Positions 1,497-31,948 of a stretch of DNA of 36,763 nucleotides are shown here, one piece after another. The stretch comes from Chloroflexota bacterium (GTDB lineage: Bacteria > Chloroflexota > Dehalococcoidia > Lucifugimonadales > UBA3495), in assembly GCA_027623675.1 (NCBI GenBank), contig JAQBVF010000033.1, forward strand, positions 1-36,763. The letters run 5' to 3'. A program made the translations under genes and the position numbers. The notes under the pieces are model-generated. The model had not been told where the DNA came from, did no database searches, and worked only from the letters and a program-made list of their open reading frames with translations. Every line of letters begins with the position of its first letter. Position 1 is the stretch's first letter.

Positions 1497-2576
1497 CTAA
1501 CCCAGGTCGGCGATCCTGGGGCCGACATCGTTCTTGAGCAGTTCCAGGCATTCTTGCTGCCACTCGTGATTGTCGGGGTCCTGGGTAACGGTCAGCAGGG
1601 TGCCGAATCCGCCCACCTGACCGTAGATCTTGCGGATCTGGTCGGCGCACTGCTGGGGGTCGCCCACGATCCAGACGTTGTCCATCAGGTACTCAACATC
1701 CACGGCGTCGTCGGGCATGTCAGGATCGTTCTTGGAACCGGCCAACAAGCCGGCCTGGCGATTGGGCTGCTGGTGTATATGGTAGTTATTCACCAAGACT
1801 TCGTTGGCCCGCTCCTTGGCTTCCTGCGCCGTGGGCGCCACCAACACGTCACGGGCGATGTGCCACTGGCTTCGGTTGACCGAGCGTCCGACGCTGGCCG
1901 CCCCGGCTTCAAATTCCTCCCAGTGACCGGTCAGGTTGGGCACGGAGAGGGTAGGGCTGCTCATGGGGATCCAGCCTTTGACCCCGGCGTTCCTGATGGA
2001 GTCGGACCGGATGGTGGTGGCGGCGGCGCTGATCGGCGGATGGGGCTTCTGGAAGGGCTTCATGTGCAGGCCCCGTTCCTTCACCGAGTCCAACTCCGGC
2101 GCCGAGATGTCGAAATACTTGCCGTGGTGCTCGAATTTACCCTCGTTCTGCCAGATCTTCAGAACTACTTCCAAGACTTCCTGGGAACGCTCGCCCACGC
2201 CCTTCCGGTCGCTGGAGTCCAGACCGTATAACTCCAGGTCGGTGGGGATGGCGCGGGTGCCGATGCCCCAGTAGAACCGGCCGCGGCACAGATGGTCCAG
2301 CATGGCCAAGCGGTGGGCCAGGTCAACCGGGTTGTGGATGGCCAGCAGGGTGACGCCGGTGCCGAAGATTATGTTCTCGGTCATGCCGGACGCTTTAGCG
2401 ATGAGCAGGTCTGGCGCGGGGGCGTTCTCCCAGCGCTCGGTGATATGTTCGCCGATCCAGGCTTCGGTGTAGCCAAGTTGGTCGGCCTTCTTGATCAGTT
2501 CCAGGTCACGGTCATAAGAGTCGGCGTAGGTGCGGCGCGGCGGATGCAGCGGCATCATGAATAGACCGAATTCCAT
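1497..2576 (-). CDS. LLM class flavin-dependent oxidoreductase
   Basis: MEFGLFMMPLHPP, ADQLGYTEAWIGEH, LAMLDHLCRGRFYWGIG, KPFQKPHPPI. ATG 2576 with GAAGGAG SD. Confidence 0.93.
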   Translation of the reverse strand: MEFGLFMMPLHPPRRTYADSYDRDLELIKKADQLGYTEAWIGEHITERWENAPAPDLLIAKASGMTENIIFGTGVTLLAIHNPVDLAHRLAMLDHLCRGRFYWGIGTRAIPTDLELYGLDSSDRKGVGERSQEVLEVVLKIWQNEGKFEHHGKYFDISAPELDSVKERGLHMKPFQKPHPPISAAATTIRSDSIRNAGVKGWIPMSSPTLSVPNLTGHWEEFEAGAASVGRSVNRSQWHIARDVLVAPTAQEAKERANEVLVNNYHIHQQPNRQAGLLAGSKNDPDMPDDAVDVEYLMDNVWIVGDPQQCADQIRKIYGQVGGFGTLLTVTQDPDNHEWQQECLELLKNDVGPRIADLG

Positions 2577-2713
2577 GGTGGCTCCTTCAGGTGGGCCGCT
2601 CGCGCAGGTAACGGGGCCGCGGCCAGATGGTTTCAAGATTAGGCTGATACTAAGTCAGCCCTCAAACACTGTCAAGGTAAATAACCAAGCCGCATAACTA
2701 TTGCGGTCACAGA

Positions 2714-2749
2714 TATTAGACCTGCTATTAGACCGACAGCAGACCCTGC
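2714..2749. repeat. Degenerate 12-bp direct repeats (TATTAGACC...) in the divergent promoter region
   Basis: tattagacctgc tattagaccgac agcagaccctgc, plus another TTAGACC at 2755-2761. Confidence 0.55.
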
Positions 2750-2755
2750 CGGCGT

Positions 2756-2784
2756 TAGACCGCGTTCCGGGGTCATGGTAAACT
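2756..2784 (+). promoter_or_regulatory. Putative sigma70 promoter of the candidate selenoprotein gene
   Basis: TAGACC (2756-2761), 17-nt spacer, TAAACT (2779-2784), with extended -10 TG at 2776-2777. Confidence 0.5.
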
Positions 2785-2829
2785 CGGCGAACACTTCCGA
2801 TAATCATTATGGGGGAGAGTAGAACTTCT

Positions 2830-3750
2830 ATGAAGAAAGTAGTAAGCGAAACCAGCGGCGCAGTTTTCAGCCTTCCTTGGCTGGTCGCCAAAGACGAGGG
2901 CTTTTTCATCGAAGAGGGCATCAACATGGAGTTCGTGGAGTCCAACTCGGTGAAGGTGGACCAGCACACCTCCGATCCGGAAGAGGTTGATCCGATCCTG
3001 GGTCACAAGCCCTTCGAGGACCAGCAGGTGGCCATCTACCGCGCTTGAGAAGAGGGTCAGGTCCGTCGGGCCTACGAGAGCAAACAGGGAGCCAAAGTCA
3101 TCGGACTGCGCTCCGCGGTGGCCAATCAAGCGTTGATGGTCAGGGGCGATTCCGCCCATTACTACCCCAGTTCATTGGCCAACAAACCCATCGCCGTGCA
3201 GTTTCACGCCGGGTCTCACTACACCACTCTGCGGCTGATCGAGGGGTACATCCCCGCCGAGAAGATCAACCTGCTGCACTACGGTAGCCCCCGCTACCGG
3301 TTCGAGGCCCTGATGAGCGGCGAGGTGGACGCCGCCATGCTCATGGAACCGTGGCTAACCCTGGCCGAGAAGAATGGCTGCCGGTCGGTCTGCGAAGGCC
3401 ACTACCTGGGCGCCGAGAACGCCAGCGACAACATGGACGAAGAGACATTCGCCGCCATCAACCGGGCCGTGGTCAAAGCGGTGGACCTGATCAACTCCGA
3501 CAAGAAGCGGTTTCTGCACTACCTGATCGATTCACCCAAATTCGCTCCGGTCGCCGCCGAGTGGGGCGGTCTGACACCCGACGACTTTCATCTGCCGCGC
3601 CTGCGCTACGCCCACCCCATGCCCTACACCGACGAACAGGTGGAGGACACCTACAACTGGATGGTCCGGTGGGGACTGCTGAACGCGTCGGTATGCGCCA
3701 CCGACTTCGTGGACAACCGGGCAACGGAGCCTGCCGCAGCCGACGATTAG
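2830..3750 (+). CDS. SsuA/NMT1-THI5-like substrate-binding-fold protein, candidate selenoprotein (in-frame TGA 3046-3048), no signal peptide
   Basis: ATG 2830 with GGGGAG SD. One frame to TAG 3750 apart from TGA (...VAIYRA-U-EEGQVRR...). Family motifs LPWLVAKDEGFFIEEGINMEFV and ALMSGEVDAAMLMEPWLTLAEKNG. SECIS-like hairpin after the TGA. Confidence 0.8.
3056..3075 (+). promoter_or_regulatory. Putative bacterial SECIS element
   Basis: GU-C(bulge)-AGGUCC-[GUC]-GGGCCU-AC hairpin. The loop starts with G and lies 16 nt after the UGA. Confidence 0.6.
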
Positions 3751-3754
3751 TCGG

Positions 3755-3804
3755 AACCATTCCGTTCAAACCATTCCGTTCAAACCATTCCGTTCAAACC
3801 ATTC
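3755..3804. repeat. 14-bp tandem repeat x3.5 (AACCATTCCGTTCA)
   Basis: Three perfect copies plus a partial copy right after the stop codon. Confidence 0.93.
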
Positions 3805-3809
3805 TTTGG

Positions 3810-3860
3810 AAACCCTCAGGGCAAGCTCTTAAGGCAAACCCTTAAGGCAACTCTTCATGG
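3810..3860. repeat. Degenerate 13-bp tandem repeat x4
   Basis: aaaccctcagggc aagctcttaaggc aaacccttaaggc aactcttcatgg. Confidence 0.65.
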
Positions 3861-7878: not shown

Positions 7879-7955
7879 TTCATCGAATCTGAATCGGGAC
7901 CGGTCAGGCTTCTATCCGTTAGAAAACGCAGGTAGAGGCCACGGAAAACAAATAT

Positions 7956-7978
7956 AGGGGCAAGTTGTACTTGCCCCT
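7956..7978. terminator. Hairpin terminator between convergent genes
   Basis: AGGGGCAAGT-tgt-ACTTGCCCCT with A/T-rich flanks. Confidence 0.65.
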
Positions 7979-8020
7979 GTTTCATGCGAGTTATGATTGC
8001 CGGCGGCCTTTGGTAGTTTG

Positions 8021-8254
8021 CTAGCCGCAGGCACATCCTCCGCCGCAGCAGCCGCCCCCGCCCAACGGAGGCAGCGGGCCGCCCATGGAACCGGGCATCT
8101 CGCTGCTGCCACCCTTGGTTACGGCCGCGAAAACCGAGATGGCCCGCTTGGCGGGCTGTTCGCAGTTGGGGCAATCGGCGCCGGTGGCGCTCATGGATTG
8201 GAGTTTCTCGAACTTGTGGTCACAGGTGGGACAGAGATATTCGTATAGAGGCAT
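8021..8254 (-). CDS. FmdB-family zinc-ribbon protein
   Basis: MPLYEYLCPTCDHKFE...CPNC and a Gly/Cys-rich tail GCCGGGCACG. GGAGAAGG SD. Confidence 0.9.
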   Translation of the reverse strand: MPLYEYLCPTCDHKFEKLQSMSATGADCPNCEQPAKRAISVFAAVTKGGSSEMPGSMGGPLPPLGGGGCCGGGCACG

Positions 8255-8379
8255 GTTGGCCTTCTCCCAATGGTCTGTCTTAGCGCCGGTTATCGCCGGC
8301 AGATTCCCTGCACCGTCTATCACGGTAGGACTTAATCTGAATTTAACCGAACCAAATATCAAGCGTCAAGAGCGCCGCC

Positions 8380-9672
8380 ATCGCTAAGCAAGAGCCAGAA
8401 CAACAGCAAGAACAACCACCTAGGGTCCGGCCCGCCCGCCGGCGTCTGCAAACATTGGACTCATGGAAGGCTTACCGCGACTTCCGATTCCTCTGGGTCG
8501 GCAACTTCTTCGCCAACACCGCTCAATGGCTGCAACTTCTTTCCGTCGGCTGGCTGGTGCGCGACCTAACCGACTCATTCGCGGCCTCCGGACTGCTGGT
8601 GGTGACCGTTGGCGGCATGACCACCCTGCCGACCCTGATCGTTGGTCCCTGGGCAGGAGTGTTGGGCGACCGCGTCGATCGCAGGAAGCTGGTCATGCGC
8701 GTGCAAACATTCATGGCCGTCGCCGCGATCACCTTTGCCCTGGTGGTGCAGTCGGGACGGGTGGAGTGGTGGCACGCCTACATCTACGTCCTGGTCTCAG
8801 GGGTTTGCTGGTCAACCACCCTTACCATGCGCCAGACGCTGGTGGCCAACACCGTGCCCAGAGAATCACTGGTCAACGCCTACGCATCCAACACACTGAC
8901 CATCACCGGCACCCGGATGATTGGCCCCTTCATCGGCGGCATCCTGATCACCACGGTGGGTTTCACCTGGAACTTCGCCATTGAGGCCTGTCTGTACGCG
9001 GCAACGGTGCTGGCCTTCCTGCGCATGAAGACGCCTTATTACCTGGAGCGGGCGGCGGACTCTAACGGCTCGCCCTGGGCCAACTTTGTGGAGGGCATCC
9101 AGTACATCCGTAAGCAAGAGCGGGTGATTCTGAACCTGATCCTGCTGGGCCTCATACCCAACGTTCTGTTGCATCCGGTATGGTTCATGCTGCCGGTTTT
9201 CACCGTTGACGTCCTGCACCGGAACGCCGATGTGGGCGGCTATCTGTTGGCCGTTACCGGGTTCGGCGGCCTCATATCGGCGTTGACCATCGCTTCGCTG
9301 GGGTTCGGCGCCAACCGCGGCTTGATCTGCCTCTGGGCCGTGCTGGCCAGCTCTGTCGCGGTCATATTGTTCGCCTATTCGCAGTGGCTGGTCCTGGCGA
9401 TGGTCCTGATCGGGTTGATGTCGATGGCCCAGGCGACGTTCCGAACGTCGTCCAGCACCCTGATACAATCTTTGGTGCCCGATCAACTGCGCGGCCGCAT
9501 CACCAGCCTGCACATGTATAGCCAGGGGTTCGTGTTCATGTCCAGCTTGGCGGTGGGATGGCTGGTCGACCTTACGACAGTCGTGGTGGCCCTGACCGTG
9601 GTCGGGGTGACCGGAACGGTATTGGGACTGGTTTCGTACCTGGTTCTCTCCAGGGTGCGGGAGGCGCGTTAG
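8380..9672 (+). CDS. MFS transporter (start probably ATC 8380; first canonical start is TTG 8455)
   Basis: RDFRFLW, motif A GVLGDRVDRRKL, VPDQLRGRI, ~12 hydrophobic segments. Confidence 0.88.
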   Translation: MAKQEPEQQQEQPPRVRPARRRLQTLDSWKAYRDFRFLWVGNFFANTAQWLQLLSVGWLVRDLTDSFAASGLLVVTVGGMTTLPTLIVGPWAGVLGDRVDRRKLVMRVQTFMAVAAITFALVVQSGRVEWWHAYIYVLVSGVCWSTTLTMRQTLVANTVPRESLVNAYASNTLTITGTRMIGPFIGGILITTVGFTWNFAIEACLYAATVLAFLRMKTPYYLERAADSNGSPWANFVEGIQYIRKQERVILNLILLGLIPNVLLHPVWFMLPVFTVDVLHRNADVGGYLLAVTGFGGLISALTIASLGFGANRGLICLWAVLASSVAVILFAYSQWLVLAMVLIGLMSMAQATFRTSSSTLIQSLVPDQLRGRITSLHMYSQGFVFMSSLAVGWLVDLTTVVVALTVVGVTGTVLGLVSYLVLSRVREAR

Positions 9673-9807
9673 ACCCGCGTCTCCCGAAACATCGGTATGG
9701 CCATCCTGAGACCGGGCGGTCGAATAGCGTTGAAAAGCAAAAGAATCTGGCTACCCTCAAGCTCCGGGGAGGTCTTGAGCAAGCTGCGGCCCAATCGAGG
9801 TTGAGAT

Positions 9808-10206
9808 TTGTTCTGGTTATATCTGGCGGTTGCCATAGTCGCGGCTGTAGCCGCCCTGGCGCTGGTCCTAACTTGGTACATACGCTGGTTGGGGAGGCGC
9901 GAACCCTACGGGGCCTTTCTGCGGCTCAACACCCGACGGAAGATCACCTTCTTCCGGTTGCTGCTGTTTGATAAAGAGAAACGCGTTCCCTTTTACATCA
10001 AGTTTATCCCGGTCGCGTTGGTGATATACCTGTCGGTCCCCTTCGACATAATTCCTGATTTCGTGCCTGTGCTGGGCTACTTGGACGATGTCGCGATCGC
10101 TCTTTTGGCTTTGGTCCTAATCATTAAACTATTGCCTCAAGGCGTGGCCCAGGAGCTGATCGACCAAGCGGCGGGCGTCGATGAGCCCCGTCCATCGGCC
10201 GAATAG
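9808..10206 (+). CDS. DUF1232 (YkvA-like) membrane protein
   Basis: YLSVPFDIIPDFVPVLGYLDD signature. Confidence 0.88.
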   Translation: MFWLYLAVAIVAAVAALALVLTWYIRWLGRREPYGAFLRLNTRRKITFFRLLLFDKEKRVPFYIKFIPVALVIYLSVPFDIIPDFVPVLGYLDDVAIALLALVLIIKLLPQGVAQELIDQAAGVDEPRPSAE

Positions 10207-10378
10207 AGCTGAATCCCTAAGAGTTACGCCGACCGGCACGGCCTGCCGATCGGTCGGCACGTCCTCCGACTGAAGTTCACCGACCGATTGTCCGCGGAAG
10301 CCACGACAGTGATGCGCCGTGATGCGCTATGAAGAATTTCCGGTGCGAGGCCCGTTCGATTTGGAGTAACATCGCTTA

Positions 10379-11869
10379 GTGATTTCCCGCATCAAGAACA
10401 GTTCCGACTACAAGTGGTGGGTGTTTGGCGCCATCGCCATTGGCACGTTTCTGTCAGTGGTCGACCACGGCAGCGTATTGGTGGCCTTGCCCAGCATCGA
10501 GCGTCACTTCGGATCCGACCTGCCAACGGTCCAGTGGATCGTGGTGGGTTACGCCCTCGCCATCAGCGTTTTGATCCTGCCCATGGGCCGGTTGGGCGAC
10601 ATGATTGGGCGGCGTCACGTGTACGTGGGCGGGATGGTCATCTTCGTGGTGGCCGCCGCCCTAGCCGGAGCGTCGCCCAACCTGGGCTCGTTGATCGCGT
10701 CCAAGATATTCCAGGGCGTTGGCTCGGCCATGGTGCAGGGTTCGGGCATGGCCATGATCATCTCAACCTTCCCCGGCTCTGAGCGGGGCAAGGCACTGGG
10801 CACCCATCTGAGCGTGGTTGGCACGGGCGCCATCGCCGGGCCGGCCATCGGTGGTCTCTTGGTCAGCGCCTTCGATTGGCGGTCGGTCTTCTTCGCCAAC
10901 GTGCCGGTGGGGCTATTCACCATCGTCATCTCGTTGCTGATCCTACCCCTGAGCAAGCCGGACGCCCCGCCGGAAGGCCAGCGGTTCGACTGGGGTGGCG
11001 CGGTGCTATCGGGCTTGGCGTTGATGGGATTCCTGCTGGTGGTGGGGAACGGAGACCGTTTCGGCTGGACATCCCCTGCCATCTATATCGGAGCGGCAGC
11101 CACCCTCTTGGCCATCGTAGCGTTCATCAAGTGGGAGCTGCGGACGCCGTCTCCCATGCTCGAACTGCGCCTCTTCAAAAGGAAGCTGGTCAGCCTGGGC
11201 GTGGCGGCCGGCTGGTTGGCCTTCCTTGGCACCTCGGCCTCCCGGTTCATGATGCCCTTCTACTTGCAGCGCGTGCTGGAGTTCGGTCCAAGGGATGTGG
11301 GACTGCTGCTGATCCCGCCGGCGCTCTGCATGGTGGTGATCGGCCCCATCAGCGGCCGGCTCTCGGACCGGTTTGGCTGGCGGGGACTTACGGTCGGCGG
11401 ACTGGCCCTATCGGTCGTTGCATGGGCCGTGCTTGCCATCACCCTCACCGAGTCCTCCCCGGTGTTGCTGATAATAATCATGTTGATGTTCCAAAGCGCC
11501 GGCACCGCCCTGTTTAACTCGCCCAACAACAGCTCGATCCTGAGCGCGGTTGAGCGGTCGCAATACGGCGTGGTATCGGCGTTGACCCAGTTGGTACGGA
11601 ACTCGGCCAACGTGACCAGCATCGCCGTCGCCACCACCGTGATCGTGGCGACCATGGGGTCCAGGGGCGTGGAGCCAAGCCTGGACGCCGTATCGCCGGC
11701 CGTAGCCGAGGCCTTTGTGGCGGGACTCCGTTGGGCCTTCTTGATGTTGGGCGGGTTGTTGATGGTGGGCATCGCCATCGCCCTGCTGCGGGGAGAGCGT
11801 CCCGATCCGGTCCAGCCTGTGAAGTCAGAACCGGCCGAATCCATAAAGGTCAGCCCTGCATCTGAATAG
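10379..11869 (+). CDS. MFS transporter, DHA2/EmrB-QacA-like
   Basis: VALPSI, GRLGDMIGRR, ERGKALG, WRSVFFANVPVG, FDWGGA motifs. GTG start with GGAG SD. Confidence 0.92.
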   Translation: MISRIKNSSDYKWWVFGAIAIGTFLSVVDHGSVLVALPSIERHFGSDLPTVQWIVVGYALAISVLILPMGRLGDMIGRRHVYVGGMVIFVVAAALAGASPNLGSLIASKIFQGVGSAMVQGSGMAMIISTFPGSERGKALGTHLSVVGTGAIAGPAIGGLLVSAFDWRSVFFANVPVGLFTIVISLLILPLSKPDAPPEGQRFDWGGAVLSGLALMGFLLVVGNGDRFGWTSPAIYIGAAATLLAIVAFIKWELRTPSPMLELRLFKRKLVSLGVAAGWLAFLGTSASRFMMPFYLQRVLEFGPRDVGLLLIPPALCMVVIGPISGRLSDRFGWRGLTVGGLALSVVAWAVLAITLTESSPVLLIIIMLMFQSAGTALFNSPNNSSILSAVERSQYGVVSALTQLVRNSANVTSIAVATTVIVATMGSRGVEPSLDAVSPAVAEAFVAGLRWAFLMLGGLLMVGIAIALLRGERPDPVQPVKSEPAESIKVSPASE

Positions 11870-19223: not shown

Positions 19224-19278
19224 TTGGGACAAGGCTAAGAACCCAAGCCCAGCTATATATATTTTGGGAGGGACAGGC

Positions 19279-20553
19279 ATGTTAAAGATCGGCCACAAGG
19301 TCGTTAGGCCTGGAATGTACGTTGGTGACGAGCCCGTCACGATTCCGGTTCCCGAGGAACTGGAAACGGTGCCAGGCATCCCACTGAACCGCCGCGAGAT
19401 TGACTGGTACGCCAGGGAGTATCCCCTGGAAACCATGAACATCACCGAGAGGGCCTCTCGCGACTGGGCCAACACAATACGCGACACACACGTAGAGATG
19501 CGTGAGATCCGCAAAGAACACGACAACCTCAACCGGCCATTGATCATGGCCGCCCGCATGACCGGCGACCAAGAGCCGACAGCGGAAGCCACTGGTGAGG
19601 ACGTAACTGAAGTCATCAAGGCCAAGTGCCGCGAGCTGGGTTACATCGAAGTGGGCTTCACCGCCTACGACCACCACTATACCTATCAGTCGAAGAAGGA
19701 CTGGGTGAAATTCCCCCACGCCCTCTGCTTGGCCTACGAGCAGGACTTCGAACCGACCCAGACGATTCCCAGCGTTGACGCCGAGATCGTCCACTCCAGC
19801 ACCTACCGCACCGAAGGCGCGGCCGGTCTGGAAGTTGCCAAGTTCATCCAGAGCTTGGGCTACCGCGCCCAGGTTCACAGCCCGAATGACAACACCGGCC
19901 CCTACATCCCCATGTTTGTAGCAGCCGGTCTTGGTTCCTTGGGCGCTTGCGGCTACCTGCTGACACCCCATGTCGGCTCCCGCTGCCGCATCATGATCAT
20001 CACCACCGACGCCAACGTAACCCATGACGAGCCGGTAGACTATGGCATCCACGCCTTCTGCCAGGTCTGTCAGGTTTGCGTGAACCGCTGCCCCGGCCGC
20101 GCCCTGATGCGCGACAAGGTGTGGTGGAGAGGCATCGAGAAGAACAAGCTCTACTTCAAGCGCTGCCGCCCCGTGATGGCCCGCTATCTCGGCTGTGGTA
20201 TCTGCATGAAGGTATGCCCCATCCAGAAGTATGGAATGGGCACAGTGATGGAGCACTACGCAGCCACCGGTCAGGTGCTCGGTAAGGGTACGCACGACCT
20301 GGAAGGCTACGAGATTGAGGGCAAGGGCTACTTCGGACCTGGCGAACTGCCGGTGTTCGAGCGCGAGTTCTTCAACTCCATGCCCAACGGAGACACCGAG
20401 AACTGGGCATTCGAGAACCTCAAGAAGCAGGCCGTGGAAGCTGGCGGCGAAGTCAGCGACGCGATGCTGGAAGAGTTCCGGCAGACCCTGCAGGTCGGTC
20501 TCGGCCAGAGCCGTGACAACCTCGCCATGATGGAGATGGAAGACTACATCTAG
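19279..20553 (+). CDS. Reductive dehalogenase/QueG-like cobalamin- and 2x[4Fe-4S]-binding protein
   Basis: AAGLGSLG...LLTPHVGSRCRIMIITTD, then FCQVCQVCVNRCP and C-x9-CGICMKVCP. GGGAGG SD. No TAT leader. Confidence 0.82.
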   Translation: MLKIGHKVVRPGMYVGDEPVTIPVPEELETVPGIPLNRREIDWYAREYPLETMNITERASRDWANTIRDTHVEMREIRKEHDNLNRPLIMAARMTGDQEPTAEATGEDVTEVIKAKCRELGYIEVGFTAYDHHYTYQSKKDWVKFPHALCLAYEQDFEPTQTIPSVDAEIVHSSTYRTEGAAGLEVAKFIQSLGYRAQVHSPNDNTGPYIPMFVAAGLGSLGACGYLLTPHVGSRCRIMIITTDANVTHDEPVDYGIHAFCQVCQVCVNRCPGRALMRDKVWWRGIEKNKLYFKRCRPVMARYLGCGICMKVCPIQKYGMGTVMEHYAATGQVLGKGTHDLEGYEIEGKGYFGPGELPVFEREFFNSMPNGDTENWAFENLKKQAVEAGGEVSDAMLEEFRQTLQVGLGQSRDNLAMMEMEDYI

Positions 20554-21018: not shown

Positions 21019-22293
21019 TTAGAGTTGGTCGGCGCTCATCTCGGAGACTGGGATGCCGGCGCTGGCCGGCTGGTCCTGCTTGAGGGCCTCGGCCAGGCGG
21101 GCAACCTCTTTCTGGTAGGTCTCTCGGTCGCTTTGTTGGCCGCTCAGGTCGAAGATGACGTGCTCGGCGGCCAGGTTCCGGGCGAACCGGGCCTTTGGCT
21201 CCTTGAGCGTGTCGTCGGTCGCCGCCAAGAAAAGGCTCCACGTCTCCGTGGCGAGCTGCATCTGCTTGGCGGCGGTGATATCGTTCAAAACTGTTTCCAC
21301 TTCCAGCGAAGCGGCCGACCCCAGCACCACCATCTTGTCGTACGCCCGGAGCCAGCGCTCGACCTCCTCCTGCTCCGAGGCGCTATGCCGGTCCACCAAC
21401 GCGTTGCCGCGCACCTCCTGAGAGAACACCCAACAGCGAACACCCTGTGCCCGCAGGTCGTCCCGCAGCGCTTTGGCTATCTCCTGGTCCTCATCGATAC
21501 ATGAGATGAAGCACTCCCGCAAGCTGGTGGTGTCCGCCTCGGCGGCCGCCAAGAACCCGTTGGCCGCGGCGGGCAGACCGACCCCGACCAAGAACGATTC
21601 GGGGATCTGCCCGTGGGAGCGGAATAACGTGTCCAAGCCCAGGGTGCTGGGGCAGTCGTGGCGGATCTGATCCAGGCCTTTCACGCCGCTTAGGTCGCAG
21701 TCTTGGAAGATGGAGTAACCCAGCAGACTGCCGGTCAGGTCCGTGCCGGTCATCTCGACGCTCCAGAACTGGGTCTGGAAAAAGTCGCTGTTGGCGCAGA
21801 TGGCATTGGTCATATTGGCCCGGACCAGCGACGCACCGGCGAAACTGGCGCCGGTCAGATCGGCGTCGGTCAGGTTGGCCCCGGCAAAGCTGACCCGGGA
21901 GAGGTTGGCGTTAACCAGCTTGGCGCCGGTGAGGTTGGCCTCGGACAAGACAGCCCGGTCCAGGTCGGCGCCGGTGAGGTCGGCCCCCCGCAGGTCGGCG
22001 CCGCGCAGGTTGGCCCCGTTCAGCCTGGCGCGGGTCATGTTGGTCTCTCTTAGATTAGCGTGGTACAGGTGGCAGGGGTTCATGTAGCAGCCTGAGAGGT
22101 TGGCTCGCTGCAATACCGCGCCCATCAGGTCAGAATTTCTGACATCGGCGCCGCTGATGTTCACCTGGGGCGCCCGAACGTAGCTCATGTAGGCTGCGTT
22201 CAGGTCAAGATTGTCTTCGGGGTTCGCCTCCCGCCAGCGGGCAACGTGGTCGCGGCCCCGCTTAACGAGTTGAACGTGCTCCATATTAGCCAT
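21019..22293 (-). CDS. Pentapeptide-repeat protein with C-terminal TIR-like domain
   Basis: Long A(D/N)LxG repeats, then CFISC...AKALRDDLRAQGVRCW...YDKMVVLGS. ATG 22293 with GGAG SD. Confidence 0.88.
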   Translation of the reverse strand: MANMEHVQLVKRGRDHVARWREANPEDNLDLNAAYMSYVRAPQVNISGADVRNSDLMGAVLQRANLSGCYMNPCHLYHANLRETNMTRARLNGANLRGADLRGADLTGADLDRAVLSEANLTGAKLVNANLSRVSFAGANLTDADLTGASFAGASLVRANMTNAICANSDFFQTQFWSVEMTGTDLTGSLLGYSIFQDCDLSGVKGLDQIRHDCPSTLGLDTLFRSHGQIPESFLVGVGLPAAANGFLAAAEADTTSLRECFISCIDEDQEIAKALRDDLRAQGVRCWVFSQEVRGNALVDRHSASEQEEVERWLRAYDKMVVLGSAASLEVETVLNDITAAKQMQLATETWSLFLAATDDTLKEPKARFARNLAAEHVIFDLSGQQSDRETYQKEVARLAEALKQDQPASAGIPVSEMSADQL

Positions 22294-22356
22294 GGTATTC
22301 GCTCCAGACCAGATTCGGATTCGGGCCATGGTTGGCCCGTGGACCGGCGGGGTGTA

Positions 22357-31909: not shown

Positions 31910-31948
31910 CACCAAAAGTTAGCACCAAAAGTTAGCACCAAAAGTTAG
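31910..31948. repeat. 13-bp tandem repeat x3 (CACCAAAAGTTAG)
   Basis: Three perfect copies just upstream of the GGAGG SD of the amidohydrolase. Confidence 0.93.

Follow-up and report, generated by a model that had tools for sequence, protein, structure and literature searches.

The bacterial SECIS (bSECIS) is described in a 2026 review (PMC13188914) as a hairpin with a stem of 4-16 bp and a loop of 3-9 nt that has a G in its first two positions, spaced 16-37 nt from the UGA and with a minimum free energy of -7.5 kcal/mol or lower. The binding-fold entries in Table 1 of that review are SaoB, SaoX, and BtuF. SaoX and SaoB (Haft and Gwadz; NF040735, NF040727) are exported proteins of a nine-gene ABC system of anaerobes with CC/CU motifs, the selenocysteine (Sec) of SaoX is placed at 191-192, and SaoX is reported to be similar to 4NMY and 2X26. 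Enzymes are known in the fold class as well, namely DszB, THI5, MqnA/MqnD, and a decarboxylase. DszB (2'-hydroxybiphenyl-2-sulfinate desulfinase, PDB code 2de3) has a Cys in the cleft and provides a precedent for Cys chemistry in the fold, with His60, Arg70, and Gly73 given as active-site residues in PMC12168087. In SsuA, Gly86 contributes one of the backbone NH groups that bind the sulfonate (PMC3839906).

The window analyzed here, the whole stretch of 36,763 nucleotides of a Chloroflexota contig (JAQBVF010000033.1, assembly GCA_027623675.1), carries a gene with an in-frame TGA and the following elements.

2811..2817, + strand: Shine-Dalgarno-like purine run ahead of ATG 2830
2830..3750, + strand: full gene, 306 codons in a single readthrough frame, with a class II substrate-binding-protein (SsuA/TauA/NMT1-THI5) fold and no signal peptide
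3046..3048, + strand: in-frame TGA, predicted selenocysteine, codon 73, aligned to a near-invariant Cys of the family

The first-pass annotation, made from the sequence alone, had proposed that the ORFs 2809-3048 and 3118-3750 form one frame interrupted only by TGA 3046-3048 and encode a 306-aa readthrough product, and the translation from ATG 2830 to TAG 3748-3750 bears this out, being free of stops apart from U73. The proposed start has a Shine-Dalgarno-like element, the purine-rich run 2811-2817, placed at a long spacing of 12 nt from an ATG that is kept as ATG in 58/59 orthologues; purine-rich runs are found upstream of the ATG in most of the 12 orthologues inspected as well. Just 24/60 orthologues have a start-type codon at position 97 (GTG 3118), which, judged from these sequences, is no conserved restart codon. 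Positions 2700-3784 show 0 differences to the assembled contigs of two runs, which may be the source of the DNA and so are not independent, and independent support comes from the orthologues. Gene callers split the gene as had been anticipated, giving the 3' part as a protein of 170-219 amino acids. Among the best 120 database matches, the closest (62-90% identity) are all N-terminally truncated, those of at least 62% identity cover at most 71% of the protein and have SAR202/Dehalococcoidia as the source names displayed, and the 44 full-length matches (46-51% identity) all have Cys at position 73.

Alternation between TGA and Cys at position 73 is seen across 147 distinct related genes, defined as matches over at least 230 profile positions with identical sequences merged and L186, L114, and L173 excluded. 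The codon is TGA in 74, TGC in 56, TGT in 9, and another in 8, with TAA or TAG in none; the eight genes with another codon have at most 22% identity and are assigned to a remoter family. The TGA is common to many genomes rather than unique to this assembly, and the expected Cys codon is present in the homologues (65/147). TGA occurs at every one of the 26 Chloroflexota loci retrieved from GTDB, which come from 25 genomes; locus 27 of that set is a Cys-type Bradyrhizobium gene of 27% identity. It is also found in 43 of the 44 metagenome loci that cover the site (53 loci altogether), although both scans used query-derived patterns and are biased to close relatives. In near-full-length database proteins the position is Cys in 95/100, with three gaps and two other residues. 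The Cys motif given in the first-pass annotation is found in the homologues, which read Y-R/N-A-C-E-W-G, though they are mostly Chloroflexota or unplaced metagenomic sequences and less often the proteobacteria named there. Selection is not relaxed beyond the TGA, with dN/dS against the window gene of 0.04-0.33 upstream and 0.04-0.26 downstream in 13/14 pairs, one pair being saturated.

These data bear on the reading of the locus as a pseudogene, two genes, an assembly error, or a product of a UGA-reassigned code, to which we give a negligible probability. It would agree with the short 3' proteins of the gene callers and with the further lesions of a few copies, namely a 1-nt deletion within the hairpin (L045/L129) and a TAG at codon 89 (L082), but the TGA persists in genes of as little as 42% protein identity, TAA or TAG never takes its place, dN/dS is low on both sides, no restart codon is conserved, and a break at this point would fall within the first lobe of the fold. 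L074 and L084 are two tandem copies of the gene; their products share ~77% and ~86% identity with the window protein, and both have the TGA and the hairpin. The TGA of L176 was considered as a Sec site and rejected, as it is the terminal stop there. Contigs of relatives, not of the window gene, span the TGA region in two marine metatranscriptome runs, this being evidence from contigs only and at low identity.

Around and downstream of the TGA, the following hairpin elements are predicted.

3059..3073, + strand: predicted bSECIS upper stem of 6 bp with the GUC triloop 3065-3067, placed 16 nt past the UGA; all bases unchanged across 71/71 genes
3043..3081, + strand: possible lower stem, 3043-3046 paired with 3078-3081

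The core of the hairpin that had been proposed is confirmed, whereas its GU/AC extension (3056-3057 with 3074-3075) is weak, with pair probabilities of 0.06-0.19 and a U-A pair kept in 52/71 genes. With a loop of three bases, G first, a 6-bp stem, and a spacing of 16 nt, the core agrees with the bacterial SECIS model as claimed; its energy (-6.8 kcal/mol alone and -7.6 with flanks, against the cut-off of -7.5) is borderline, and its pair probabilities are 0.5-0.9 depending on context. Hairpin stability was dropped as evidence, being no better than that of shuffled sequences (z +0.55, -0.35, -0.25, and +1.51) and equaled downstream of 10% among 3000 TGAs picked at random from the genome. By itself the predicted hairpin is unremarkable, and the case is carried by its conservation. 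Codons 77-81, which lie under the hairpin, are identical in 71/71 genes of the main TGA clade at 42-98% identity, and codons 74-76 and 82-85 vary in the same genes. A subset of 60 genes offers for comparison 74 further conserved sites of 4- to 6-fold degeneracy; the commonest codon there has a mean frequency of 58%, and codon 72 alone among them is as fixed. The invariance of the upper stem leaves no covariation to measure, and synonymous freezing is observed instead; on these codon frequencies the putative element is selected as a nucleotide sequence. Codon 72 is GCT in 69/71 TGA genes compared with 1/49 Ala codons in Cys genes, a bias that fits the putative lower stem and that avoidance of mispairing would explain too. 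Ten Cys genes with a similar peptide reach at best -5.0 over the same 18 nt compared with -7.6 for the window gene, none being as stable. In one of these ten, the Cys homologue of a Mesorhizobium plasmid (L162), codons 77-82 are two bases off the SECIS stretch, either by chance or as a relic. No Rfam family matched within the window.

The source genome has selA, selB, and selD above cut-offs together with tRNA-Sec, so that the Sec machinery is present, and its selD has its own in-frame TGA followed by a hairpin with the same GUC loop as the window gene. Among the 25 genomes of the GTDB TGA loci, selA is found in 24 and selB in the other one, and selA, selB, or tRNA-Sec occurs in all 28 TGA-bearing genomes tested besides the source genome. 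In the three genomes whose TGA genes are divergent, tRNA-Sec and selB are present, with no selA match in one of them (G106, 81% complete). As selA is also present in 6/6 tested Dehalococcoidia genomes with Cys-type genes, the machinery is a necessary condition that does not discriminate within the class. TGA terminates 306 of the 1383 long ORFs of the genome and is a normal stop there, which shows that the code is not reassigned and argues against that version of the pseudogene reading. Scanned blindly for TGAs whose flanks look coding, the genome yielded 24 sites, the window TGA included; six of the others have G-first triloops 17-20 nt downstream, and several of these six sit in what are presumably motifs of known selenoproteins. 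Examples from the full set of sites are C20:62203-, C5:142099+, C17:90927+, C35:86573+, C20:59470-, C39:57081+, C44:22246-, and C13:89464-. The source genome is selenoprotein-rich, and the BSepDB paper notes Dehalococcoidia with 46-49 selenoprotein genes. Taken together, the codon and hairpin data indicate that the TGA at codon 73 is very likely read as selenocysteine via the downstream hairpin, and we are close to certain that SelB would bind the GUC-loop hairpin and bring Sec-tRNA to this UGA.

A quick maximum-likelihood tree of 102 proteins needs four Sec/Cys changes, three of which are forced by well supported branches. The Sec proteins fall into a main U-E-E-G clade, a U-E-C-G pair (L056, L198) inside a Cys clade, and the long-branch U-E-C-G protein L052. 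Nested in the main Sec clade is a Cys-E-E-G protein that retains Glu75 (P0125, a cluster of 67 members), which is likely, from its position and sequence, a Sec-to-Cys reversion. A single Sec clade is rejected by an AU test on 45 rows (p 0.0007), P0125 having joined the group after the first tree, and on these trees Sec arose at least twice. The three U-E-C-G genes are without the main-clade hairpin and have other candidate hairpins downstream, which do not in every case form the minimum-free-energy fold. Position 75 is Trp in 65/65 Cys genes and in 0/74 TGA genes, where it is Glu in 71 and Cys in 3. This association of Sec gain with Trp75 loss corresponds to two or three events and not to 74, and may reflect chemistry or an RNA constraint. 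In L056/L153 (G030), a small ORF ending in Gly-Gly is placed directly upstream of the U-E-C-G gene and a luciferase-like monooxygenase (LLM) gene directly downstream, an arrangement that is not found at L198; the small ORF presumably encodes a MoaD/ThiS sulfur carrier-like protein.

The AlphaFold2 models (pLDDT 90.5 and 94.6) have the SsuA/THI5-like fold that had been suggested, as borne out by structure matches. The structure search gives SsuA with Z 24.4 (rmsd 2.8, 270 residues aligned), followed by TauA (21.7), THI5 (18.8), MqnD (17.4), and DszB (16.4), with Foldseek concordant, so that true binding proteins are placed ahead of THI5 and DszB. The profile score against the SsuA family is 25 with a cut-off of 163.5, and the Pfam NMT1/THI5 match covers residues 16-45 only. 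Sequence searches of the PDB returned nothing closer than SsuA-type proteins, and a query of the ESM Atlas with P0038, a Cys homologue, produced nothing beyond automatic names of the type "ABC substrate-binding protein". The part of the model with a predicted functional role is the following.

3043..3069, + strand: predicted active-site segment, U73-E74-E75-G76 to R80, at a strand/helix junction facing the interdomain cleft

In the model, strand 69-73 gives way to helix 74-83 at residue 73. A G-x-x-D motif occurs in the family consensus, followed by the Cys five residues past the Asp, and aligning this motif with Gly78 and Asp81 of SsuA sets residue 73 on SsuA Gly86, a correspondence of register and not of superposition. 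Across 100 near-full-length homologues the best kept polar positions are C73, W75, G76, R80, G128-S-H-Y131, R157, and E173; within a family whose mean column identity is 35%, no polar positions are more conserved than C73, W75, G76, and R80. The alignment of Sec73 with a ligand-binding position makes the protein likely to be a cytoplasmic enzyme with a selenolate nucleophile.

The cytoplasmic location is suggested by the lack of a recognizable signal peptide in 93 full-length homologues inspected for length and hydropathy, which have a median of 16 residues before Pro16 and include six with longer N termini that are not signal-peptide-like. No constant permease neighbor is found among the loci checked, nor a cognate permease or ATPase. 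Because of the missing signal peptide and conserved permease neighbor, the protein is probably not the substrate-binding subunit of a transporter. An orphan substrate-binding subunit of an ABC importer would match the public labels and the weak profile matches, and we nevertheless rate it as very improbable, as a signal or lipoprotein peptide is present in 0/93 homologues, the SsuA family score falls far below its cut-off, and neighboring transporters carry their own binding protein. In two of the six annotated plasmid loci a complete ABC system, equipped with a binding protein of its own, immediately follows the Cys homologue; in three, all haloarchaeal, the homologue heads a row of three binding-fold genes and no permease is present; and in one it stands alone. 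The haloarchaeal plasmids (L164, L165, L166) share a conserved cassette at ~7950-10810 composed of a cupin gene and the three binding-fold genes without permease; none of the binding-fold genes in L164 has a signal peptide, and the third is, by resemblance, presumably THI5-like.

The gene next to the Sec gene in the window is divergent from it.

1497..2576, - strand: luciferase-like monooxygenase (LLM) gene, a neighbor only in the closest clade

LLM monooxygenases adjoin the gene in the two largest clades, where they are not orthologous between clades, and are absent from most other loci checked. With different LLM genes in different clades and ~80 LLM loci in the genome, the neighbors do not point to a substrate, and a DszA/DszB-like pair, which was considered, is unsupported by the LLM neighborhood. 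Other neighbors are varied catabolic enzymes and family-5 ABC systems. The family comprises 649 clusters at E 1e-10 and occurs in 38/251 genomes of the SAR202-containing order, with up to nine copies, some in tandem. One genome of nine family matches (G360) has tandem arrays of three (L142:8323-11428) and five (L143:7057-12469) Cys-type paralogues beside family-5 ABC systems. Elsewhere in the window, the product of positions 19264-20553 (+ strand) has a Cys-rich motif of the iron-sulfur type, with a gene of similar appearance divergent to the Sec gene in L036 and L040-L043 (the L042 copy has no Pfam match at 1e-5), and positions 21019-22329 (+ strand) encode a pentapeptide-repeat protein with a homologue-like gene near the Sec gene in L036, L040, and L041. 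Intergenic tandem repeats of 13-14 bp are present at 3755-3804, 3810-3850, 1338-1412, and 31910-31948, the first two right behind the selenoprotein gene.

The reading that we favor, with fair confidence, is that of a predicted cytoplasmic substrate-binding-fold enzyme in which codon 73 is Sec-decoded and the selenolate is the likely catalytic nucleophile. The product would stay in the cytoplasm and its two lobes would close on a small organic anion, with Sec73 capping the helix where SsuA binds sulfonate oxygens. It is reasonably probable that the anion would be clamped by R80, H130/Y131, and E173 and attacked by the selenium, one of the residues acting as general acid/base; the Cys relatives would use a thiolate where the window protein uses a selenolate. 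For the substrate, an organosulfur compound by analogy with DszB is the leading guess, although a rather doubtful one. A broader proposal, which is tentative and a little better placed than that guess, is that the gene belongs to the selenium branch of a large unrecognized family of cytoplasmic Cys-nucleophile enzymes on the sulfonate-binding-protein fold, spread over bacteria and haloarchaea, in which two or three switches to Sec used separate hairpins and lost the Trp each time, and whose function would be non-redox and directed at deep-ocean organosulfur compounds or dissolved organic matter.

Two further selenoprotein readings rank below the favored enzyme. The first, which is unlikely but stands foremost among the rivals, is a cytoplasmic binder or sensor without catalytic activity, whose Sec73 would ligate a thiophilic metal, a metalloid, or a reactive sulfur species. 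Binding proteins and cytoplasmic regulatory domains head the list of structural matches, and SaoB and SaoX are binding-fold selenoproteins proposed as metal binders; the window family, however, has a single conserved Cys/Sec, as C184, C188, and C289 vary even in the Sec clade, a conserved regulator or partner gene is absent nearby, and the up to nine paralogues per genome, some tandem, fit substrate diversification at least as well. A resolving-Cys pair among C184, C188, and C289 was rejected on the same variability. The second, less probable still, is a thiol-type oxidoreductase resembling a peroxidase or sulfoxide reductase, with Sec73 oxidized in the cycle and then re-reduced by an outside thiol or by the neighboring Cys of U-E-C-G. 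That the majority of catalogued selenoproteins are redox proteins (PMC13188914) and that the three divergent TGA genes are all U-x-C would agree with such an enzyme, but where these have Cys, Glu is found in the 71 genes of the main clade and Trp in the 65 Cys genes, leaving no general resolving Cys, and no thiol oxidoreductase is known to have this fold. The metal or sulfur sensor is accordingly ranked first among the rivals, ahead of the thiol-type oxidoreductase, the orphan transporter subunit, and the pseudogene in that order.

The family would extend selenoproteins beyond the usual redox folds, in a marine lineage that is widespread (SAR202-type), and its recognition corrects a systematic annotation error by which the gene is cut in two and the closest database entries are N-terminally truncated. 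A broad family labeled "ABC substrate-binding protein" would consist of probable cytoplasmic enzymes, and Cys members in cultured Mesorhizobium (WP_199202450.1), Geminicoccaceae (WGF90899.1), and haloarchaea (Haloterrigena WP_339105983.1) can be assayed. The predicted Sec-spanning tryptic peptide, residues 72-79, is identical in 71 genes and is thereby a single target for mass spectrometry in metaproteomes from the ocean. Active-site adaptation to selenium can be tested directly through the coupled gain of Sec and loss of Trp75, and the proposal of a selenium branch would, if true, make the family a natural experiment on the active-site changes required for selenium use.

With respect to known systems, no description of the family was found in the literature searched, where Haft and Tolstoy 2025 is covered only through the table of the review, and where an entry for it could stand in Deng et al. 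2026 or in Table S2 of BSepDB. The family is absent from the 119 families of Table 1 of the review (PMC13188914), in agreement with the first-pass annotation, which did not recognize it as a classical selenoprotein family, and none of the binding-fold families in that table matches it. SaoX and SaoB are likewise selenoproteins on a substrate-binding-protein fold, and the two structures reported as similar to SaoX are also fold matches of the window protein, which differs from both in having no signal peptide, a single Sec at 73, no CC/CU motif, and no sao operon. The SaoX and SaoB profile models do not match the window protein at E 0.01, and 8/58 family members match the SaoX model weakly (best 8e-5). 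SsuA and TauA (PDB codes 3e4r, 2x26, and 6ssy) are the best fold matches, with residue 73 apparently in register with Gly86, and the window protein differs from them in the absence of an export signal and of a cognate permease or ATPase, in scoring below the family cut-off, and in placing a reactive side chain at the SsuA Gly.

THI5 carries a CCCxC motif. THI5 HMP-phosphate synthase (PDB code 4h65) is a cytoplasmic enzyme of the same fold, but its identity to the window protein is 12-13% and the CCCxC cluster is absent from the window protein and the family consensus. DszB is a fold match with an rmsd of 3.8 over 269 aligned residues, and the window protein is likewise cytoplasmic by prediction. 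The numbering of DszB His60, Arg70, and Gly73 is close to that of H59, R71, and U73, with a weak in-register match over 90-125 (E 2.1). The catalytic Cys27 of DszB, in contrast, lies near the first strand, a place without Cys in the window family, the window protein having none in its first 72 residues, the identity is 15-17%, and a dsz operon context is absent. With the DszB Cys placed elsewhere, the window protein would at most work like DszB and is not assigned to the DszB family. Compared with the catalogued bacterial selenoproteins, the window family is without a thioredoxin-type or CxxU/UxxC motif. In common with those that have an intragenic bSECIS, it has UGA at a Cys position, a G-first loop 16 nt downstream, and SelA/B/C/D in the genome, and it is very likely a real and new selenoprotein family of the known UGA/bSECIS type, with a predicted function.
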